A stretch of 63,891 nt of DNA, the filler included, from assembly GCA_964501035.1 (NCBI GenBank). It is 3 parts of 3 records of this genome, joined end to end, with 100 filler letters (N's around TTAATTAATTAA, not from the genome) between each part and the next. Parts side by side here need not be neighbours in the genome. Positions count along the whole stretch, not along the records: positions 31,187 to 60,084 come from CAZCRK010000016.1; 2 more parts are not named here. One strand, given 5' to 3'. The notes beneath the pieces are model-generated. The model made no database searches. It worked only from the letters and a program-made list of their open reading frames with translations, and was not told the DNA's origin. This document shows positions 5,558 through 36,945 of the stretch, piece after piece. The position numbers and the translations under genes were made by a program. Each line of letters begins with the position of its first letter. Position 1 is the first letter of the stretch.

Positions 5558-8500
5558 TTATTCATCACATTCGGGATATGGACACGAAGGAAATGTACAT
5601 TCCATCCAAACACATTCTCCAGAAGGTAATTTCACTTTTGTATAATTTTCGTTATTTTCTTCGGTTGGTAAAGGAGTAGTTATTATATCATCAGAATCAT
5701 TTACGGGATCATTCAAAGGCGGAGGCGAATCCGAAGGCTTTGTCAAAGGACAAAAGAAATTGCAATCCCAACACCCTCCGATACATATATAGTCTAGTGA
5801 CGGACAACCATTACTGCAGCCGGGGTGGCATGAACCAAATGCTTCAGTACAACGCGGCTCGCCTGTCGGTGGAGGGACAGGCAAATCTGGCGGCCAACAA
5901 CAACACACATTATGTGGGCAATCACAACAAGGCTCTTCTGCGCCGGGTATATCTGGATTATAGTCTAATTCGTCACATCTTGCATAACCAAAACAAACTT
6001 CACTATCACACCCATCCGGATGCCAAGCAGTACTACAACCCATCTCCTCATCACAACATCTTACAGGAATTTTACCGCACATACCCTCGCATTCTTGCTC
6101 ATTTTCAAACCTAATGCCACCCATACACGCACATTCTCCTTGTCCTTCGCCGGGTCCGGGGGCATACACACACCGACCAAACCCCTGGTTTTCTGGACAA
6201 CAACACCAACGGAAACAACATCGATGATGCGAAGAACAAAGATGGTCACAAACCCCTGATCCTGCTTCTGCACAAGTATTCTCTCCTCCATATTGAATAA
6301 CAAGCATACCACCCGGCGCAAAATCTTCACAATTCGCTCCCCTTGGCATATTCCAACAAGCAGGACCAAACTCCCAACACCCACAACAATGATCTGTTTC
6401 TGCATAGGGTGAATCCGTTGTTCCTGGCGGCGGTGAAGTAGGACTGGGACTGGGAGTGGGAGTGGGACTGGGAGTGGGACTGGGAGTGGGACTGGGAGTG
6501 GGATCGTCATCACATGGGTTTGGTGTACAAGAAACAGAATCGCCTAGATAATCACCATTAGAAGTAGAACAACTTGATTGTGTTGTTATTATACAATTTG
6601 TGTCAATGCAACACGCACCTTGCTCCCCTCCCCCTCCGCACTGTACGCAAGTAGGACAATCAACACAATCAGAACATTCTTCTAAACAACACAAAACATC
6701 TAAACATGATGTGTCGTCTCCGCCATATGTTCCGCCATAAGAAGAAGAACAAACAATTGCTTCAACAGGACCAACGCAAGAACCATCGGGTAAACAACAT
6801 GCTCCTTCAACAGGACCAATATTACACGGATCATCGTCACAACTAGAACCACCACCACTCCAGACACAACTATTACAACTGCAAAAATTTTCTATACTAG
6901 TATCGTGACATATGGGGTCTGTTCCTTCATGTGAGCAACATGCTCCTCTATCACACGGTCCATCTTCGCAATTTATTCCACCAAACCAAACAGAATTATT
7001 TGGATAATCTTCATAACAATCAGAACTTATCATGTAATAACATTCATTCCAATCAAAATTGTTTATAATACAACATGCTCCATATATTCCACCCACTTCA
7101 CAACCATCACAACTTTCAACCCACACATCACCGTCACTAACATCACAAGTACCATCTGAATCACAAATACCATCAGGATGACAACAAAACATCATATCAC
7201 ACCCAATATTACAATCGGAACCGTCGCCTCGATAAATTCCACTACTATTCTGACACTTTTCTGGTGTATAGTCTGGGTAACAAGACCCCCAAATACAACA
7301 TGCCCCTGTTGGCATATCACATGTTATATCATCACAAACTCTATGCTCATACCATATACCACCCACACTAATACAATAGTCTTCCGGCCAAAAATAACAA
7401 TCCCCATCTGGTTGACAGCACGCAGCAAAGGTTTCAGAAGAACAATCTACCTCTAAACAATTAAATCCTTCATGAAATATACCATCCATCGAATCACAGT
7501 CACTATTTGTTGATGATGAACATTCGTCATTAACACAACAAGCATATTGTGGTTCAGAGCAATCTATTTTATCACAATTTGAATAATAAACATCCCCACC
7601 CCACTCCAAACAGGTAGATTCATTCATATTATAGCAGGTGAACTGATCGACGCAGCAGGCAACATTATCAGGATTGTCCCCACATTTACTTTTACATTCT
7701 ACTTCAGTAGAAAACCACGATCCAGACAAACATTCACAAAAATTCATACTCTCACATGATTTATTTTCACAACAATAGCCACCATTTGTACACGATGTGT
7801 CGCCCCATACTCCTCCACAATCTGTGTCTGTGGTTTCGCTACAAGAATTATCTTCACAACACCAATCAATGTCAAAAACACCAGCACACGGACAAGGATC
7901 ATCCTCACAAGATGTACCTTCACCCTTAAAAATTCCTATACCCATACATGAATTTTCTTCTGCTTCGAAACACTCTTCACAATTATTCTTAACACAACAA
8001 GCACCATGCGGTGTAATTGTGTGACAACTACTATCAAAACAACTCATAGAATTCCAAGGATAATTTGAATTGTTGATATCCCCTTCATAAAAGGTTCCAG
8101 CTATTTTATCACTTTCACAATAACATATATTAGTTCTAAAACAGTTATCATAATCTACGGATTCCGAACAACACAATCCCCAACATTCTTTACCTGATGT
8201 CCAAGTTCCGTTACGATCATCACAGTCACTTTGTGTTCTATTTCTACAATAATCAGTCTGTATTGAATAGTCTTCGATTTTTGTTCCTATACCACCACAA
8301 TCAGCACTGTCCGCATAATAAATTCCTCCACCCCACAACATTTTACAATAATTCTCCGTCGAAAGAGAATTCAAATTATCCAAATATTCTGGAATATTAT
8401 TTATACACAAAAGAGTTTGACCACTAATTGATGGTATAAATCCTGACAGGGGCCAAAGACAAGATCTATTGTTATCTGGCTGCATATCACAATTATCTTC

Positions 8501-11500
8501 CCATGGTGGAGGACTTCCTTGTGGACAATGTTCAGGATTACTTTCTATGTCACCGGGAATTTGAGGATCTTTTACCGGAACTCCTCCCTCTCCTGCATCT
8601 ATATAACCAAATCTTCCTTTAACATCTGCTAACCAAGGGCGAGGTCCATCAGCATATTCGCCTATGATAGTACATTCATTATCTGAATATGGAGAAGAAA
8701 AATTACCTCCCCAATAATATCCATCATTGGTACACCTTATATAATTTCCGTACCATACCCTCGGACCCCCTTCATTACAACACACACCAATATCCAAGCA
8801 ATCAATATTAGCACAAGTGTTTCCGACAAAAAATGTATTATTAGTACCCTGCCACCTACACTCATTTTCAAAAACATCATCTTCACATAACTGCCTGCCA
8901 CGACAACAAGCACCGCGCGGTTCACAAGGACAAGGATCATCTCCGCACGATTCCTCATCATACCACACACCACCACTATTATCACATTCTGATCTTTTAA
9001 TGTCTTCACATTGTGCCTCACCACACCCACCATCTAGTCCAGCACAACATGCACCAAGATTATCACTACCATCACACGCCGGACAAGGATCAACAGAACA
9101 AATTCCAAAATCTGTGTTTGCTGTCCAACCCCCCCCAAAAACATTATTACAAACCTCTTCAGAAACATAAAAACAATCACCACAATCACCTTCAGTACAG
9201 CAATACCCGAGGTCATCAGGTTCGTTATTACAGGTTGGACACGCAGTCTCACCATCATAGCATAAATTATCAGAAGGACAAATACACGCACCCCAAGATC
9301 CCATACACTCCGCAGAGACTTGACAACACCCTGCACATTCATGCCATGTTGAATTTTCACCACTACAATGACTCTTATTCGTGTATCCACAAGAGCGTGT
9401 TGCATTTTGTGGTTCAATACAACACCCACCTATACCACTAAAATAATTATGGTAATTATCATTACAATTATTTAAATCACAAGTGCTATTCATTATCCAA
9501 CCGCAATGGTGTACCGAAGAAATTCCTGTATGATTTCCGGGGCTATATGGACCCTCACATATACCTTGACATTCTGACCATGTTACATTTTCATTACACA
9601 AATAACCACCATCACTACGGCAAGGAAGATAGCAACAACTTCCTTCACAAGGCCAATCAACATTAGAATTGCCGCACAATTGTCCGGCATGAAACTCTCC
9701 ACCTTTATCATCACACTCTGAATTGTTTGTATTATCACAACGCGGTACTGTTTCGAAACCAGATGTCTCCACATAACAACACGCACTAATACCAAATTCA
9801 CACAATCCCTCAATACAAAAATAATGTTCTGAATACCATGTTCCTTCAGTGCAAGCAGATTCAGTGGTTACTTCACAGTCTTTACCAGTACAACAAACAC
9901 CGGGACAATTACCGCACTCTTCTACAACAATTCCAGACATTATATGTTTACAAGTATATCCAGGCATTCTGGTACAAGTTCCTTCAACACAACAATGAAC
10001 CCAACATCCTTCATCGATATTAATATTATCTGGATCATCAGGATCACAAGAAGCATTCGACCAAAAACCCCCCTGAGAAGAACAACCACACCTACCCATT
10101 TCTTCACATTCGCCATTAACAAAACAACAAGCACCAATAGCAGAACAATCTTCAAAACTAACAGCCACCGAACACAATCCACCATGCCCATCCGTTTCGT
10201 TACACGGTACGCAAGCCCCATCAGGACAACAACATGCTCCTGACTCACCCTCACAAGTAATAGGATCTATTCCGCAAGTTGAATCACAACAAGTAGTATT
10301 TTCTGACCAAACTCCTCCCACCTCATTACATTCAGTTAGAGTAGTTAATGTACAGTCACAATATATATAATTCCCATTCCCATTAGGATCACATGGACAA
10401 CCAGAACCGAAGAAATCTTCGCACGGATCAGTGCAACATGCCCCAACCGGGTTATCACAATCAACACCATCACAAGGCCAAAAATCATACCACACGCCGC
10501 TCCAGGCGGCACAAACCTCATAAGTCATATCAGCATTATTATATGTGTCATAACATGTCCAATCATCAACACAGCACGAACCCGGACAATCTCCACCAGA
10601 ACTATTATTTCCGCATCCACACCCACCCCCTCCACACTCTCCACTTCCATCATAACAACCAATTCCACAGTGGACAGATAATGGTATATCCGATTGACAA
10701 TCATTAGGATTCGCTCTTAAATCATCACATGTTGTCCCTTCACCATACCAATAATTTAGAGGATGAGATGATAAAGGACAAGTACAAAGAGGCCTTATAG
10801 TTTCTACACAGTTACAATTTCCCTGACCATCTACATTATATACACAGCAAGCCCCCCGTTCCCAATCGCCACAATATGCGCATAGTGGTGCGCATAATTT
10901 TTTATTACAAACATCTACACATCTACTATTTCCTTCTCCCACACCCGCACAATCATCATGATCTGTACATTCTCTTGTTTCATTACCATCCAATATACCA
11001 TAGTAACAACTATTTACATCATCTGGACACACAAAGTCATTATCTGGGCATCCGCGAGTTTGAACACAACTTGTTCCATTATCATCATGGTTATTAACAC
11101 AAGTACATCCCCTATAGAATCTTCTTTCTTCCGGATCATCATCTAAAGGAGCAACATTCGTGCATACATCTGAATCATAATACATCCCACAACATTCCGA
11201 TGGTGGTTCAGGTTGCCAACTATCTGTCCAATCTTCATCCTCCTCCGAAGCATCCCAAGGAGAACCATCAGCAGAACCACAACTACACCCACAAGCATTA
11301 GTACTTAATAATTCGTCACAAGTATTAATGAACCATATATCACCTGAACTTTCACATTCATTTTGATTCATTGTCACACAACTATCACCAGCTTGACAGC
11401 AACTACCAGAAGGAGAACAATAAATAGAATCACAATCTTCATCCAATGTGAATGTTCCCCCCAACATACTACACTGATTGTTTGTTACACCATCTATACA

Positions 11501-31186: not shown

Positions 31187-31187
31187 T

Positions 31188-31412
31188 GAAGAATTCTATA
31201 ATGATATTGAAAAAAAACTTAATGGTTCAGAAATAATAATCAAAAATATTGTACACAACCAATATCACGAAAAATATTACTTTGAGCAAAACGATGAATT
31301 TGCAATTTTTCTTTTTTATTATGATGGGAAAAATAGGTTTAAAAAAGTCGTACCCGAAGAATCAACGAGCAACTCACTTAATTTGATAAACAAAATTAAA
31401 AATCTCTTATGA
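31188..31412 (+). CDS. 3' fragment of a gene translationally coupled to the TPR gene
   Basis: Open frame EEFYNDIEKKL...HNQYHEKYYF...FYYDGKNRF...KNLL*; TGA overlaps the next ATG (ATGA). Confidence 0.7.
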   Translation, partial: EEFYNDIEKKLNGSEIIIKNIVHNQYHEKYYFEQNDEFAIFLFYYDGKNRFKKVVPEESTSNSLNLINKIKNLL

Positions 31413-32701
31413 GTAATATTAAAGAAAAAAGGGATAAAGCATCTTCACTTCGGAAACAAAATAATTTTCATGATGCCCTCCCTTTATTTGAATCTCTTTG
31501 GAATGATACAAAGGACAAATGGGATGGATGGAATCTTGCGTTTTGTTACAATAAATGTTCAAACTATGATGATGCATTAGCGGTTGCAAAAGAAGTATAT
31601 GAAATTGATAATGAATTTGACTATATAAAAGGCCAGTATGCATGGTCAGCATATATGATAAAAATTAAAGATTTTGACATTAATGATAATTATGAAACAC
31701 TGAAATCTTATGGGAATGGTATTTTAAAATTAACGGACACAAAACATGAAGATGTATTTCGTCAACTTACTGTTTTAAAATTAATGGACTTTTGTGAGAA
31801 AAAAGGAATGTGGGAAGCAGTAGTATCATGGTCTAATAAAATTAATCCGAATGTCTTGAATGCAAAACCATTTCAAATGAATAAAAATGGAAAAAATATT
31901 ACAATCCCATCAAACCGTGAGAAGTATTTCTTAAAAACTACAAAAGCACATGAAAAATTAGAGAATTGGGATAAATGTCTTGAATTGTCATGTTCTGCAT
32001 TGACCCATTTCCCTGATGAAATTTGGTTCAAAAGACGAAAGGCTATTTCTGAAGGACATTTAGGTGATATTGAAAAAGCAATTGAAGATTTGATTTACAT
32101 CTCTTTGGTCAAAACCGACTGGTTTATTTATAGGGACATTGCTGTTCTTTATGCAAAAAATGAGAATTTTGATAAAGCATCAGATTTTATCATTGATGGC
32201 TGTATTGCATCTGTAAATCAACCTGATCCTGGCTATAGATGGGAATTGTATTATGATACTGCATTATTCCTGTTTAAAAAAGGCGATATAAAAATGGCTG
32301 AAAAACATTTATTATTATCTTTCTCATTACGTAATAACGAAGGTTGGAAAACACCAGAAGTGATTTCAAAATTAGCAAGTGAGATGAATATTTCACTTGA
32401 AAGTGTTAAAGATACAAAAGGATTATTTAGAGAATTAAATCCATTTTGGGATAAACATAAATTTTCAAAACTACCTAAACATAACGGTAATATAAAAACA
32501 ATATTGCCGAATGGAAAAGCTGGCTTTATTACTTCTGAAAATGGTGACGATTTCTATTTTAAAATCTTTTCCTTCAATGGTAATAGAAAACGAATAACAC
32601 CTGGTTTAAAAGTTCAGTTTTATGTGCAAGAATCTTTCGATAGATCAAAAAATGAGAATTCATATAAGGCTGTTAACATATCAATGGTTGTAAATGAATA
32701 A
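31409..32701 (+). CDS. TPR-repeat protein with C-terminal cold-shock/OB-fold domain
   Basis: Helical TPR-like segments; G.IK....GKAGFI...G.DFYF...G.KVQF...AVNI C-terminus. Confidence 0.75.
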   Translation: MSNIKEKRDKASSLRKQNNFHDALPLFESLWNDTKDKWDGWNLAFCYNKCSNYDDALAVAKEVYEIDNEFDYIKGQYAWSAYMIKIKDFDINDNYETLKSYGNGILKLTDTKHEDVFRQLTVLKLMDFCEKKGMWEAVVSWSNKINPNVLNAKPFQMNKNGKNITIPSNREKYFLKTTKAHEKLENWDKCLELSCSALTHFPDEIWFKRRKAISEGHLGDIEKAIEDLIYISLVKTDWFIYRDIAVLYAKNENFDKASDFIIDGCIASVNQPDPGYRWELYYDTALFLFKKGDIKMAEKHLLLSFSLRNNEGWKTPEVISKLASEMNISLESVKDTKGLFRELNPFWDKHKFSKLPKHNGNIKTILPNGKAGFITSENGDDFYFKIFSFNGNRKRITPGLKVQFYVQESFDRSKNENSYKAVNISMVVNE

Positions 32702-32713
32702 AATGAAATTACT

Positions 32714-32770
32714 ATCTAACCTCCACTCCACACGGACAGCTAACGCTGCCCGTGAGTTTATTCGTTATAA
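32714..32770 (+). mobile_element. Integron attC site
   Basis: R'' ATCTAAC 12 nt after a stop; ACTC(C)AC pairs with GTGAGT leaving an extrahelical base; CAGC-TAAC-GCTG stem-loop; R' GTTATAA; 57 bp. Confidence 0.85.
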
Positions 32771-32807
32771 AGCAAAATTGAAACTAATGAAAAGGGGACA
32801 AAAAAAA

Positions 32808-34268
32808 ATGAAAAAAACAACTATACTATTCTTATTATTGGTTTTTAGCACTGTTTTTGCGCAAAGACGAGTTAGTGAAGAAGCAAAAATGTTCAACCAA
32901 ACAAAGGACAAGGTGTTTACAGTATTTGGAAACGGACACGGTTCTGGATTTTTATTTGACAAAATCAATGGTTTGATTCTTACAAATGAACACGTGATAT
33001 CAAACTCTCAAAACATCAGTGTTCAAATTGATGACAACCAACGAATCAACGCAAAATTAATAGAAAAAGATAAAAGGAAAGACTTGGCTGTATTGGCAAT
33101 TCACCCTGACTTTGTAAAGGATTTGGAAGGTTTGTTAATTGCCGTAGCCAGTGATACGATGATTTATGTTGGTGAAAGAGTAATCGCAATTGGAAGTCCG
33201 TTAAATCAAACCAGAACTTTAACATCTGGAATTGTCAGTAATATCGAAAGAGAAACAATTATTTCTGATGTAAATATTAACCCCGGAAATTCTGGCGGTC
33301 CTTTAATTAATATGATTGGACAGGTGGTGGGAATTAATACCTTTGGTGACTTTTCGTCTGTTGGCCCTGGTTTGTCAGGTAGTGTGATAATTACTGAAGC
33401 AAATGAAATTATTAGTAATGCAGTTGCAACTGTAAGTCAGGGAAGCCTTACATTATCTAAAAAACTTTTACCAATTATGCCAAAAGATAGATTTCCTCTT
33501 GACGCATTAGAAACTGCTGCTTTGAATGAATTTCACGATAAGGATTATCAGTTAAAAGCCGGGAAGTTCAAAATTACTTTTATTACCCCACCTTATCAAT
33601 ATAATGCTCAAAAAGCAAAATCTTTGCGAATGGCTTCAAAAAGAGAAGGTGCAAGTAGTGGTTCCGATGAATCAGAAGAAGTGTTCTCTGATTTAAAAAA
33701 CTGGACTTCAAGCGTTGGTCAGTTTAAACCTGTCGTATCAATATTAATTGAACCAACAACTGGTGAAACATCAGCAAGTGCAACAGCAAATGCTTGTGGT
33801 GCAGCAGCAGCAGGATATGCTGGAACTTCATATTACGCTAACCGTGATTATGAATTTAAATCTGATGTTGAAAACTTTATATTAAAAAGGGACGGTAAAG
33901 TTATTGAGCCAATAATAAATAGTTTTCAATACATCACTTTAGATTTTAAAACCGCTGGTTATTATGGTTCATATTCCGGTGAAGATTTAGCCCAAGCAGG
34001 TTATTTTGTTTACCCTATTGATGCATTTTTACCAACTGGTGGTTCATTTCCAGAATTTTCTTTTGATGTTATCAACCATATGGATAATCAAACTATTACA
34101 CATTTAATACCTGAAAATTCAATATATAAAATAAATGCAGATTTTGAACCATACACTAATGACAAAACTGGTTCGCTTGCTTATAAAAAACCAAGTGGCG
34201 GCGATGGTGGAGTTGTCTGTGTTTTATTAATGTTGGCTGGACTTGTCTTGATGGCGACTGGTGCATAA
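32808..34268 (+). CDS. Secreted trypsin-like (S1/HtrA-type, no PDZ) serine protease
   Basis: GSGF, LTNEHV, DLAVL, NPGNSGGPL catalytic motifs; signal peptide from ATG 32808 with AGGGG RBS; C-terminal hydrophobic tail. Confidence 0.85.
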   Translation: MKKTTILFLLLVFSTVFAQRRVSEEAKMFNQTKDKVFTVFGNGHGSGFLFDKINGLILTNEHVISNSQNISVQIDDNQRINAKLIEKDKRKDLAVLAIHPDFVKDLEGLLIAVASDTMIYVGERVIAIGSPLNQTRTLTSGIVSNIERETIISDVNINPGNSGGPLINMIGQVVGINTFGDFSSVGPGLSGSVIITEANEIISNAVATVSQGSLTLSKKLLPIMPKDRFPLDALETAALNEFHDKDYQLKAGKFKITFITPPYQYNAQKAKSLRMASKREGASSGSDESEEVFSDLKNWTSSVGQFKPVVSILIEPTTGETSASATANACGAAAAGYAGTSYYANRDYEFKSDVENFILKRDGKVIEPIINSFQYITLDFKTAGYYGSYSGEDLAQAGYFVYPIDAFLPTGGSFPEFSFDVINHMDNQTITHLIPENSIYKINADFEPYTNDKTGSLAYKKPSGGDGGVVCVLLMLAGLVLMATGA

Positions 34269-34916
34269 TTGAAAATCGCTTTTTTTGTCGTTTTGATAAT
34301 GAGTCAGTATCATCTATTTGCACAGGAAAAACAAATACCATATGCAAAATATTATGATGTTCCTGTTGATTCATTAATTTTTTATGAATCATTATCGTTT
34401 GATAAAAGCATTTTCATCAAAGCAATTAGAAAATGGCAAATTCATTCTTATTCTAATGAAAACCTCAATTGTCAATTTTATCCATCGTGTTCTAATTTTT
34501 TTGCCTTGTCAGTTTTTAATAATAATACTTATTGGGGCGTTGTAAAAGGAATTGATAGAATTGTTCGTTGTAATAATTCGGCAAAAAAATATTTTGATAG
34601 TAATACTTATAGCGCCAATTATTGGGATGATGATAGGATGGTTGACAAACTATCCCCAGCAAGAAATCCAATGCCTACAAAAAAAGCGTTATTGGCAACG
34701 AGTTTATCCATTATACCAGGTCTTGGAAGATTTTATTGTGGCAGACATAAAGACGGTGTAATTAGTTTTTTTTCATTTGGTTTACTTTCTTACATAACCT
34801 ACAAACAATATGAAAAAGAAAATAATTTCCTCCTTTATTTATCTGGTTCTTTTACGTTCACATTTTGGCTAAGTGATTTTTATGGTGCATATAGAACAGC
34901 AAAAACAACAAAATAG
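34269..34916 (+). CDS. YidD/DUF37-like domain fused to a membrane domain
   Basis: CQFYPSCS...DRIVRCN motif; LSIIPGLGRFY membrane segment. Confidence 0.7.
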   Translation: MKIAFFVVLIMSQYHLFAQEKQIPYAKYYDVPVDSLIFYESLSFDKSIFIKAIRKWQIHSYSNENLNCQFYPSCSNFFALSVFNNNTYWGVVKGIDRIVRCNNSAKKYFDSNTYSANYWDDDRMVDKLSPARNPMPTKKALLATSLSIIPGLGRFYCGRHKDGVISFFSFGLLSYITYKQYEKENNFLLYLSGSFTFTFWLSDFYGAYRTAKTTK

Positions 34917-34925
34917 GAGCTAACA

Positions 34926-35468
34926 ATGAAAAACCTTTTGATATTAATTTTAATCTTTTCATACTCATTTGGTAATAATTTTTCGTTTGTTGGAGGTGGC
35001 ATTAGTTCAATTGGTCAATTTTCTCTTTTTGGTGGTTTAGTTCAAAAAAATAATATGTCTTTTTATGGGCATATTGCATCTCAATTAAAATATTCATCTT
35101 ATATTGAAGATGATTATTATTCAAATATTTCGTATTGGGATTCAATTGATTGGGGTGATGATTATTATGGTGAAGAATCAGATTATTATTCCTTAATTGG
35201 TGGAATTACATATGGGTTAGAAAACAATATGTTTCTTTTTGGCGGAGTTGGTTACTCGAATAAACGAACCTTTTGGGAATTTCACGATGATACTTATATT
35301 TTAGGATCATTAGGTTTTTATTATGTAGATGCGCCTTCAGATTCTCAAGAAACTGGCGTTACATTTGAAGGTGGTCTTGGTTCAACATTTAAAAAGTTTA
35401 ATTTTTCTATATCCTATCAAACATTTCCTTCATCAATAAATTTCAAATTTGGTGTTAACTATTTTTAA
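34926..35468 (+). CDS. Putative outer-membrane beta-barrel protein
   Basis: Signal peptide, amphipathic strands, C-terminal FGVNYF. Confidence 0.6.
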   Translation: MKNLLILILIFSYSFGNNFSFVGGGISSIGQFSLFGGLVQKNNMSFYGHIASQLKYSSYIEDDYYSNISYWDSIDWGDDYYGEESDYYSLIGGITYGLENNMFLFGGVGYSNKRTFWEFHDDTYILGSLGFYYVDAPSDSQETGVTFEGGLGSTFKKFNFSISYQTFPSSINFKFGVNYF

Positions 35469-35483
35469 TCAAAGTGATTTGCT

Positions 35484-35597
35484 TTATAACCCCCACTCCA
35501 CCGAACCCTAAAATGGTTAATGGTTAATTATTAATGATGAACGATTTAACAATTTTCAATTTATCGTTTATAATTAAAAGAGTCAGTGAGTTTTTTT
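35484..35597 (+). mobile_element. Long attC site with degenerate R' box (array end)
   Basis: TTATAAC-CCCC-ACTCCAC 15 nt after a stop; matching GTCAGTGAGT at 35582-35591; internal hairpin; no GTT at the expected position. Confidence 0.65.
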
Positions 35598-35870
35598 AAA
35601 GGCAACCCTACCTATTTAGTTCTGTTATCCTTAGTAATATTTCTACTTATCCCACTTATTGCAATGCAATATACGACGCATATTAATTGGGATGTCGTTG
35701 ATTTTTGTATCATGGCAATTCTTCTTATTAGCATGGGTAGTTTGCTTGTATTGGTGATTAAAATAATCCCATTAAAATACAGAAAATTTGTTGTGTCAGT
35801 TATTGTATTGGGGTTTTTAACTATTTGGGTAGAACTTGCTGTAGGTGTATTACCAGTTTGGGGAGATTAG
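35586..35870 (+). CDS. Small membrane protein
   Basis: Three hydrophobic segments, LIPLIAMQ...W...DF and IWVELAVG motifs; start codon uncertain. Confidence 0.65.
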   Translation: MSFFKGNPTYLVLLSLVIFLLIPLIAMQYTTHINWDVVDFCIMAILLISMGSLLVLVIKIIPLKYRKFVVSVIVLGFLTIWVELAVGVLPVWGD

Positions 35871-35883
35871 GTGTTTACCAGTT

Positions 35884-36945
35884 TTAGGCTTCTTCCAAGC
35901 GAACTTTTTGTTCTTCTAGCTGAAGAGCTTCAATCACTTCGTTTAAATCACCATCGGTAATTTCATTCAGTTTATACAAAGTTAGATTAATGCGGTGGTC
36001 TGTTACCCTGCCTTGGGGGTAATTATAGGTGCGAATTTTGGCAGATCGGTCACCAGTGGATACCATCGATTTTCGAGCAGTTGCACGCTCACTTTGTTGC
36101 CGTTCAATTTCCTGTTCCAATAAACGAGAGCGTAAGACCTTCATGGCTTTATCACGATTTTTATGCTGAGAGGATTCATCTTGGCAAGTGACGACTAACC
36201 CAGATGGGTTATGCGTAATTCGAATCGCTGATTCGGTTTTATTCACATGTTGTCCACCAGCACCCGATGCTCGATAGGTATCAATTTTTAAATCACCTTC
36301 ATTGATGTCAACATCCACATCTTCTGCTTCGGGTAGCACGGCAACCGTTGCAGCGCTAGTATGCACACGACCACTCGATTCGGTTTCCGGAACTCGCTGT
36401 ACTCGATGCACACCCGATTCAAATTTAAGGGTACCATACGCAGATTCACCAACAATAGAGAGCACAGCTTCCTTAATGCCTCCCCCCTCGTTTTCGTTTA
36501 AACTGAGTAGTTCTGATTTCCACGTTCTTCGCTCAGCAAAACGGGTGTACATACGCAATAAATTTCCTGCAAAGAGAGCAGCTTCGTCTCCACCTGTGCC
36601 TGACCTTATTTCTAAAATTGTATTTTTATCATCGTTTGGATCTTTTGGAATGAGCATAATTTTTAATGTTTCTTCCATTGCAGCTAATTCTTCTTTGAGC
36701 TCGCCAATTTCGTCTTTTACTAATTCTTTGAGTTCATCATCATTGCCTTGTAAAATTTCCAAATCTTCTTGAAGTTGTTCGTGCTTGGCAATATATATTT
36801 TCGCCTGCTCAACTACATCATTTAAACTATTATGCTCACGTGCCATTGCAGTAAAGGCTTTCATGTCGGACATTGCATCGGGTTGACTCATTTGTTCTGC
36901 AATTTCAATATGATGCTGAATTACTTGTTGGAGTTTATCTATCAT
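35884..36945 (-). CDS. prfA: Peptide chain release factor 1
   Basis: GGQ motif, PET anticodon mimic, [14 protein letters not shown]. Confidence 0.97.

Follow-up and report, generated by a model that had tools for sequence, protein, structure and literature searches.

What kind of element occupies positions 31187-35870, where contig C16 opens directly with a run of co-oriented genes that leads up to prfA? The window, meaning the whole stretch of 63,891 nucleotides (nt) analysed here, joins contigs C15 (1-31086), C16 (31187-60084) and C94, with N spacers between them, from genome G000 (GenBank assembly GCA_964501035.1; 1.87 Mb, 167 contigs, 34% G+C). Its source is an uncultured marine member of the phylum Fidelibacterota (Marinimicrobia/SAR406), the name now used at NCBI for 'Candidatus Neomarinimicrobiota'. 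The original prediction had read the start of C16 as the distal end of a chromosomal integron or of a CALIN, the IntegronFinder category for a cluster of attC sites lacking an integron integrase (PMC9024848). A lineage-specific attC covariance model, an array lying behind intI in a related locus (L088), the complementarity expected of cassette ends and the variable gene content of the locus all support this prediction, and none of the outcomes named beforehand as refuting it came up. The cassette array is genuine, and its attC sites belong to a family specific to this lineage. As far as sequence can tell, 31187-35600 is very probably the promoter-distal end of a sedentary chromosomal integron, and its two attC sites bound one complete three-gene cassette (cassette 2) preceded by the 3' part of a larger cassette with TOTE genes (cassette 1). 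As foreseen, C16 begins at 31187, all open reading frames (ORFs) between 31188 and 35870 lie on the + strand, and no integrase is found among the C16 genes read; prfA, on the - strand, is convergent with the array. Since the contig begins inside a cassette, the array certainly continues upstream.

An attC site is an imperfect palindrome with outer boxes R'' (RYYYAAC) and R' (GTTRRRY) and inner boxes L'' and L' that carry an extrahelical base; IntI binds the folded bottom strand and recognises the R and L boxes together with that base. Site 1, a short site of 57 nt, has this order (box coordinates in Table 1): ATCTAAC-CTCCA-CTCCAC leads into a hairpin, which is followed by GTGAG-TTTATTC-GTTATAA, and pairing of the two L boxes leaves a bulge. 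The crossover is expected between G32764 and T32765. The second site fared differently from its prediction: R'' and L'' are present, as are L' and a T-rich spacer, while the R' position (35598-35604) reads AAAGGCA and not GTT, so that site 2 is a decayed site that has lost its R' box. The motif said to be common to both sites is indeed there: 32717-32731 reads TAACCTCCACTCCAC and 35487-35501 reads TAACCCCCACTCCAC. This 15-mer has three matches at up to two mismatches, where 100 shuffles lead one to expect 0.12 and never give as many as three, and across the whole genome it gives three matches at up to one mismatch, compared with none for the reversed control.

A once-circular cassette, the original prediction argued, should show complementarity between its two ends. 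Cassette 2 does so exactly: the bases at 35478-35490 are the perfect reverse complement of GTTATAAAGCAAA, which occupies 32764-32776 (+). Taken alone the 13-mer is weak, with three matches at up to one mismatch against 0.35 expected and two of 100 shuffles reaching three; in AT-rich DNA a lone 13-nt inverted repeat is unremarkable, and it is the position that counts. Here the first 12 nt past the crossover complete an exact complement of the 13 nt ending in the cassette's own R'' (13/13), and the relation recurs in five other cassettes (three at L088, one each in genomes G018 and G043), whose R'/R'' flanks match at 12, 13, 13, 10 and 9 of 13 positions. Outside the conserved TAAC the six cognate cassettes agree at 9/9, 8/9, 9/9, 9/9, 6/9 and 5/9 positions, against a mean of 3.7/9 for 57 non-cognate combinations. 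The intergenic gaps of cassette 2 measure 0 and 9 nt, which leaves no room for an internal attC.

Similar sites were then found in relatives by searching the 15-mer in 42 genomes of the taxonomic family, where matches with no or one mismatch single out a few genomes and were the only ones followed; at two mismatches the 15-mer is no commoner than its reversed control, and those matches were discarded. The resulting attC family has the layout R'' YTAAC, a 5-nt spacer, L'' CTC[C]ACC, a variable centre, L' GGTGAG, a spacer TTTATTC and R' GTTRRRY, in which CTC[C]ACC pairs with GGTGAG around a single extrahelical base. Its members are mostly 134-163 nt long, with short versions of 57-74 nt, and the 134-163-nt elements of the relatives share the ends YTAAC-CCCCA-CTCCACC (5') and GGTGAG-TTTATTC-GTTAGAC (3'). 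The 3' 16-mer of site 1 equals the relatives' consensus exactly, although it was not used in finding them; within G000 it occurs exactly at site 1 only, with one more place at one mismatch. When the nine sequences are aligned, 86% of the cells in the R and L helices are paired; sliding the helices by 1-3 columns lowers this to 22-52%. In four of the pairs both partners have changed, and covariation scores 0.171, a value that four of 500 shuffles reach, the shuffles scoring 0.088.

A covariance model, R1, was built from nine attC sites of relatives with no window sequence in training. Run on the window with filters off, it returns site 1 with 44.6 bits (E 7e-10), over exactly the span first proposed, and site 2 with 25 bits (E 1.5e-4; non-standard pairs in the R helix); the next match has 13.6 bits. 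An attC model search had been set beforehand as the check on the prediction, and across the whole of G000 R1 ranks the two sites first (44.6 bits, E 2e-8) and second (24.9 bits, E 0.0045). The third match, C22:2473-2534(-), with 18.9 bits and E 0.19, was not accepted as an attC; it has L-box-like pairing and no GTT. It lies about 3 kb from the gene of a 335-amino-acid (aa) tyrosine recombinase. Over the order, R1 matches at E<=0.001 occur at 34 places in 14 of the 74 genomes, among them several same-strand pairs 0.8-4 kb apart outside the training set (genomes G030, G031 and G003), in keeping with the expectation that such sites recur elsewhere; at L088 they stand directly downstream of intI.

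The search for intI that had been proposed was successful in part. None lies on C16, and a partial gene was found at C31:4-570(-), which covers positions 1-189 of TIGR02249 at 237 bits; it is free of stop codons and is cut off by the start of the contig. The Xer-like genes of G000 score 52-80 bits over the same part of the profile, and the closest solved structure to the fragment is Vibrio IntI4 (2a3v, 7e-46). Judged from these matches, the fragment would represent the 5' two thirds of an integron integrase. Relatives in which the protein is complete, at 77-80% identity to the fragment, reach 450-453 bits against a TIGR02249 cut-off of 265, and they contain a stretch ALERKYP, which we take to be an IntI hallmark. 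A fragment at the end of another contig (G000:C6:51206-51430(+), about 75 aa, TIGR02249 positions 240-314, 97 bits, beside a mraZ-like ORF) was considered as the missing 3' end and rejected, as it is 49-51% identical to the relatives' IntI and has no upstream intI part; its appearance suggests a remnant or a disrupted mobile element.

The layout that G000 may have had is visible at L088, a locus fetched by IntI similarity (77% identical to the C31 fragment; TIGR02249 453 bits). Everything there lies on one strand: intI (5956-6954) is followed by some 180 nt in which TATACTGCA-like words recur, with a candidate attI core, GTTATAT, at 7138. Next come three + strand cassettes, each closed by an attC of the same family (7778-7911, 9039-9173 and 9759-9832). 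In the same IntI clade, the 3' end of intI is cut by a contig end or lies within about 800 nt of one in six of eight relatives; 3' ends at contig breaks would fit a badly assembling array on the 3' side of intI. Over the 74 genomes, IntI (threshold E<=1e-40) occurs in 13, an attC match in 14 and both in seven, where about 2.5 would be expected, counts that are not independent in genomes that are kin.

What places the C31 integrase beside the C16 array is the gene order of a same-genus genome, G001, in which prfA has a Schlafen-type helicase as its neighbour and, beyond this, a P-type ATPase whose flank maps to G000 C31:715-7015, directly beside intI. From this one genome we infer that the C31 intI would lie upstream of the C16 array. 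The proposed order would then be the P-type ATPase, intI, an unassembled attI with further cassettes, C16 and prfA, with intI reading towards the array. By analogy with known integrons, IntI would cut between the G and TT of R', and cassettes would be excised as circles by attC x attC recombination and inserted at attI.

The prfA flank itself varies as the prediction of variable gene content would have it. With prfA as the conserved chromosomal boundary, prfA, DUF1385 and the aminotransferase gene are kept in 7/7 relatives' loci, whereas none of the six island proteins stands beside prfA in 5/5 loci, and a DNA comparison with relatives gives matches to the prfA part of the stretch only. The slot in G001 (L014, G001:C6, 9737-11737) holds a defence-like gene with a Schlafen group 3 helicase domain (PF09848, 6e-80), so the slot between prfA and the ATPase holds accessory cargo in both genomes. 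In G018, which belongs to another genus, the region 229-2748 upstream of prfA (L078, G018:C21) contains an attC at 229-386 and an RmuC-family cassette. These are accompanied, likewise upstream of prfA, by an attC-like site that has decayed (16.9 bits) and by a HicA gene paired with a helix-turn-helix partner. The prfA flank is either a recurrent integron site or an old location.

Marine metagenomes show the array sites in other contexts. Logan contigs from four seawater or marine runs were matched at >=90% likeness, and stretches without contig cover carry no information. The bin of site 1 has a summed depth of 62-185 against 0.25-4.4 in the two neighbouring bins in the four runs; these figures are summed contig depths, possibly of several organisms, and show other contexts rather than copy number. 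Contigs of up to 3.5 kb match just 32715-32767 and then diverge, with loose ends that start at 32715-32717 and after 32752 or 32767, which are the R boxes. Contigs matching 35517-35593 of site 2 continue as ATTCGTTAG, that is, with an intact spacer and R'. Among the metagenome pieces listed, none spans site 1 from cassette 1 into cassette 2. One contig of run X4 connects 32773 with 35471; both R-box flanks are kept, and the cassette 2 cargo is skipped. As an excision product this joint was rejected, being a single contig with 22 letters on its shorter side and lying off the expected crossover, and no excision product is seen in the metagenome contigs.

Several observations count against the reading as a chromosomal integron. 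Six of the nine training sites of R1 were found through the 5' motif of the window and one through the 3' motif taken from those, which makes the 5' half of the R1 match partly circular, and the E-values are rough, coming from a shortened calibration. Unconstrained folding yielded no attC-like closed structure at either site and was dropped as an attC test: the minimum-energy fold of site 1 is the central hairpin alone, with the R helix absent, and site 2, which lacks R', has no significant fold against shuffles (z -0.94 and -0.03). The R and L helices are visible only in the constrained fold, where the bottom strand of site 1 reaches -10.0 kcal/mol and the top strand -7.1, and in the comparative alignment. 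The integrase and the array are on separate contigs, joined by the order in G001 and by no other genome, and the six remaining loci examined lack this ATPase near prfA. In G001 itself, intI (80% identical) stands elsewhere, beside genes whose counterpart in G000, C63, stops at a contig break. The G000 assembly contains neither attI nor the 3' third of intI, where the insertion specific to IntI and three of its four catalytic residues are located.

Some of these points would suit an array that has no integrase of its own, with the C31 gene as a separate locus or a remnant and the cassettes maintained in trans or decaying. As assembled, C16 matches the CALIN category, with two attC sites, no integrase and a decayed terminal site, and the order offers parallels: seven genomes have attC matches and no IntI at E<=1e-40, among them G030, which is 98% complete, carries nine R1 matches (E<=0.001) and possibly holds CALIN-type clusters; that G001 keeps its intI elsewhere points the same way. 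However, C16 breaks off inside a cassette, with the array running on upstream, and the sole intI fragment of G000 lies at the end of another contig, points outward and is flanked by a gene that neighbours the prfA region in G001. The 3' ends of most related intI genes, cut by or close to a contig end, with L088 showing an array in just that place, argue in the same direction, and the CALIN appearance may be an assembly artefact. A CALIN holds only if the C31 intI is unlinked, and we regard it as unlikely. Far less probable still, to the point of being nearly negligible, is that the sites are lineage-specific intergenic repeats (terminators, repetitive extragenic palindromic (REP)-like elements or miniature inverted-repeat transposable elements (MITEs)) which resemble attC by chance. 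Site 1 does hold a 10-bp GC-rich hairpin directly after a stop codon, and MITEs, like the elements in the relatives, can be both long and conserved. Yet a terminator scan of 31187-36100 found no terminator-like site, no Rfam family matches site 1 or site 2, and the element is present in two clear copies and one weak one in the genome rather than dispersed, whereas the R'/R'' complementarity, the position after intI at L088 and the breakpoints at R boxes are specific to integron cassettes.

Table 1. Features of the cassette array and its prfA flank, in window coordinates.
Feature	Position	Strand	Basis
TBP domain (TATA-binding-like), 3' end of large gene cut by contig start, cassette 1	31188-31409	+	Pfam PF22721 TBP-TOTE
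TPR repeats fused to cold-shock (OB-fold) domain, last gene of cassette 1	31409-32701	+	Pfam TPR + CSD; PADLOC PDLC01170
attC site 1, 57 nt	32714-32770	+	covariance model R1
Site 1, R'' ATCTAAC	32714-32720	+	sequence
Site 1, spacer	32721-32725	+	sequence
Site 1, L'', followed by central hairpin	from 32726	+	sequence
Site 1, L' GTGAG	32752-32756	+	sequence
Site 1, spacer TTTATTC	32757-32763	+	sequence
Site 1, R' GTTATAA	32764-32770	+	sequence
Cassette 2, ~2.8 kb, three genes	32765-~35597	+	13-nt complementarity
Trypsin-like serine protease, start inferred	32808-34268	+	Pfam Trypsin_2, 2e-24
YidD-like + TM2 fusion protein	34269-34916	+	Pfam YidD 1e-11; TM2 1e-3, under TM2 cut-off
180-aa protein without Pfam family	34926-35468	+	ORF; no Pfam/PADLOC match
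attC site 2, terminal, decayed	35484-35601	+	covariance model R1
Site 2, R'' TTATAAC, followed by spacer	35484-35490	+	sequence
Site 2, L'' CTCCACC, followed by AT-rich centre	35496-35502	+	sequence
Site 2, L' GTGAG	35586-35590	+	sequence
Site 2, T7	35591-35597	+	sequence
94-aa hydrophobic small protein, between last attC and prfA	35586-35870	+	homologues in relatives
prfA, peptide chain release factor 1	35884-36945	-	Pfam PCRF and RF-1

The cargo of cassette 1 is recognisable in spite of the contig break. Its TBP domain matches PF22721 (8e-21) over profile positions 6-78 of 78 and, in PADLOC, the C-terminal ends of the PDC-M16A models (687-930 positions). The protein that follows has its cold-shock domain (CSD) at residues 359-412 and matches PDLC01170, 'TPR fused to cold shock-like domain', at 5e-63; by this domain make-up it is the TPR-CSD partner of TOTE/PDC-M16B. 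TOTE (TPR, OB, TBP, Effector) conflict systems are defined by a TBP protein paired with a TPR-OB(CSD) protein, according to the accessible portion of PMC12458937. Cassette 1 has the same order, a TBP-domain protein and then a TPR-CSD fusion, and by homology it carries a predicted TOTE/PDC-M16 defence pair of which the TBP and TPR-CSD parts are present and the effector region of the large protein lies beyond the contig start. It differs from the described systems in this missing effector part and in travelling in a cassette, which that portion of the paper does not mention.

The three genes of cassette 2 are of another kind. As read by eye from the translations, the protease opens with a signal-peptide-like segment and has a hydrophobic stretch at its C-terminal side, and the 180-aa protein has a signal-peptide-like start with Gly/Tyr-rich repeats; that the latter is an outer-membrane barrel is a guess. 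It has no Pfam or PADLOC match, and a relationship to the 196-aa protein of the first L088 cassette was discarded as not significant (E 0.07). Homologues of the YidD-TM2 protein, 43-45% identical, occur in two genomes of the taxonomic family f2, where protease-like and barrel-like neighbours are absent and no attC lies near them. A conserved operon was therefore rejected for cassette 2, its three genes not being found together elsewhere. At the end of the preceding contig in the window, C15 (30960-31086), there are tandem 12-nt repeats, GGACTTGGTGAA and then many copies of GGGAGTGGGACT, probably a repetitive coding region that broke the assembly.

At the far end of the array, the lack of R' in site 2 means that the last cassette is, on the sequence, probably no longer excisable and fixed in place. 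The terminal attC of L088 likewise lacks GTT and reads GAT there. The 94-aa ORF, whose start overlaps the L' box of site 2, has homologues of 31-45% identity in 10 other genomes of the 74, none of them on a prfA contig, and no attC was found near the five homologue loci searched; it is a real gene of patchy distribution and may be native or an old cassette. Within the decayed terminal attC, just upstream of this ORF, lies the region's best sigma-70-like match (35546-35574, TTAACA-17 nt-TATAAT, 11/12); promoter-like matches overall number 33 against 24.3 +/- 5.0, which is not clearly above chance.

How does this array compare with integrons already described? In complete RefSeq genomes, 93% of complete integrons fall in Gammaproteobacteria, according to the part of the IntegronFinder 2.0 survey available (PMC9024848), and the word Marinimicrobia is absent from the main text of that survey. 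In our literature search, which did not extend to the supplements of broad surveys, where such cases may be listed, no account of integrons in Fidelibacterota or Marinimicrobia came up, and co-mentions of 'integron' and 'Marinimicrobia' were judged incidental by title and abstract. The nearest resemblance in layout is to the integrons of Treponema, which the accessible section of PMC3607928 describes as having an 'atypical structure' with the integrase co-oriented with the cassettes: at L088 intI, the candidate attI and the cassettes lie on one strand, and the same layout is inferred for G000. The hosts differ (Spirochaetes against Fidelibacterota), and the attC sequences found here form their own family.

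With the superintegron of Vibrio cholerae the array shares a chromosomal location, rather than one on a plasmid or transposon, attC sites that are alike within the lineage, and toxin-antitoxin cassettes, represented in the relatives by HicA with its helix-turn-helix partner and by ParE. Unlike the superintegron, the arrays here are small, with 2-3 sites per contig and three cassettes in the one complete example, their integrase is co-oriented, and their attC sites fall into the long and short size classes given above. Further points shared with sedentary chromosomal integrons are the closest solved structure, again that of Vibrio IntI4, and a defence system as cassette cargo; integron cassettes have been reported with phage-defence cargo in the available parts of two sources (10.1101/2024.07.02.601719; PMC12614218).

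Taken jointly, these observations lead us to lean, if narrowly, towards a wider picture, in which the Fidelibacterota, an abundant lineage of the dark ocean, hold an undescribed integron clade with a co-oriented integrase, its own long and short attC family, and a terminal loss of R', seen in two readable arrays, that would lock the last cassette. In this picture the metagenomic excess at site 1 would reflect a large shared cassette pool that moves defence genes (TOTE, nuclease-like and toxin-antitoxin) and multi-gene envelope modules between streamlined genomes. If it is true, a reading of attC logic from sequence alone can be correct, and TOTE/PDC-M16 would travel as cassette cargo, in line with the phage defence found in integron cassettes. 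An uncultured and abundant ocean lineage would then have a working gene-capture system with a recognisable attC signature, and that signature could be used to harvest Fidelibacterota cassettes from metagenomes.

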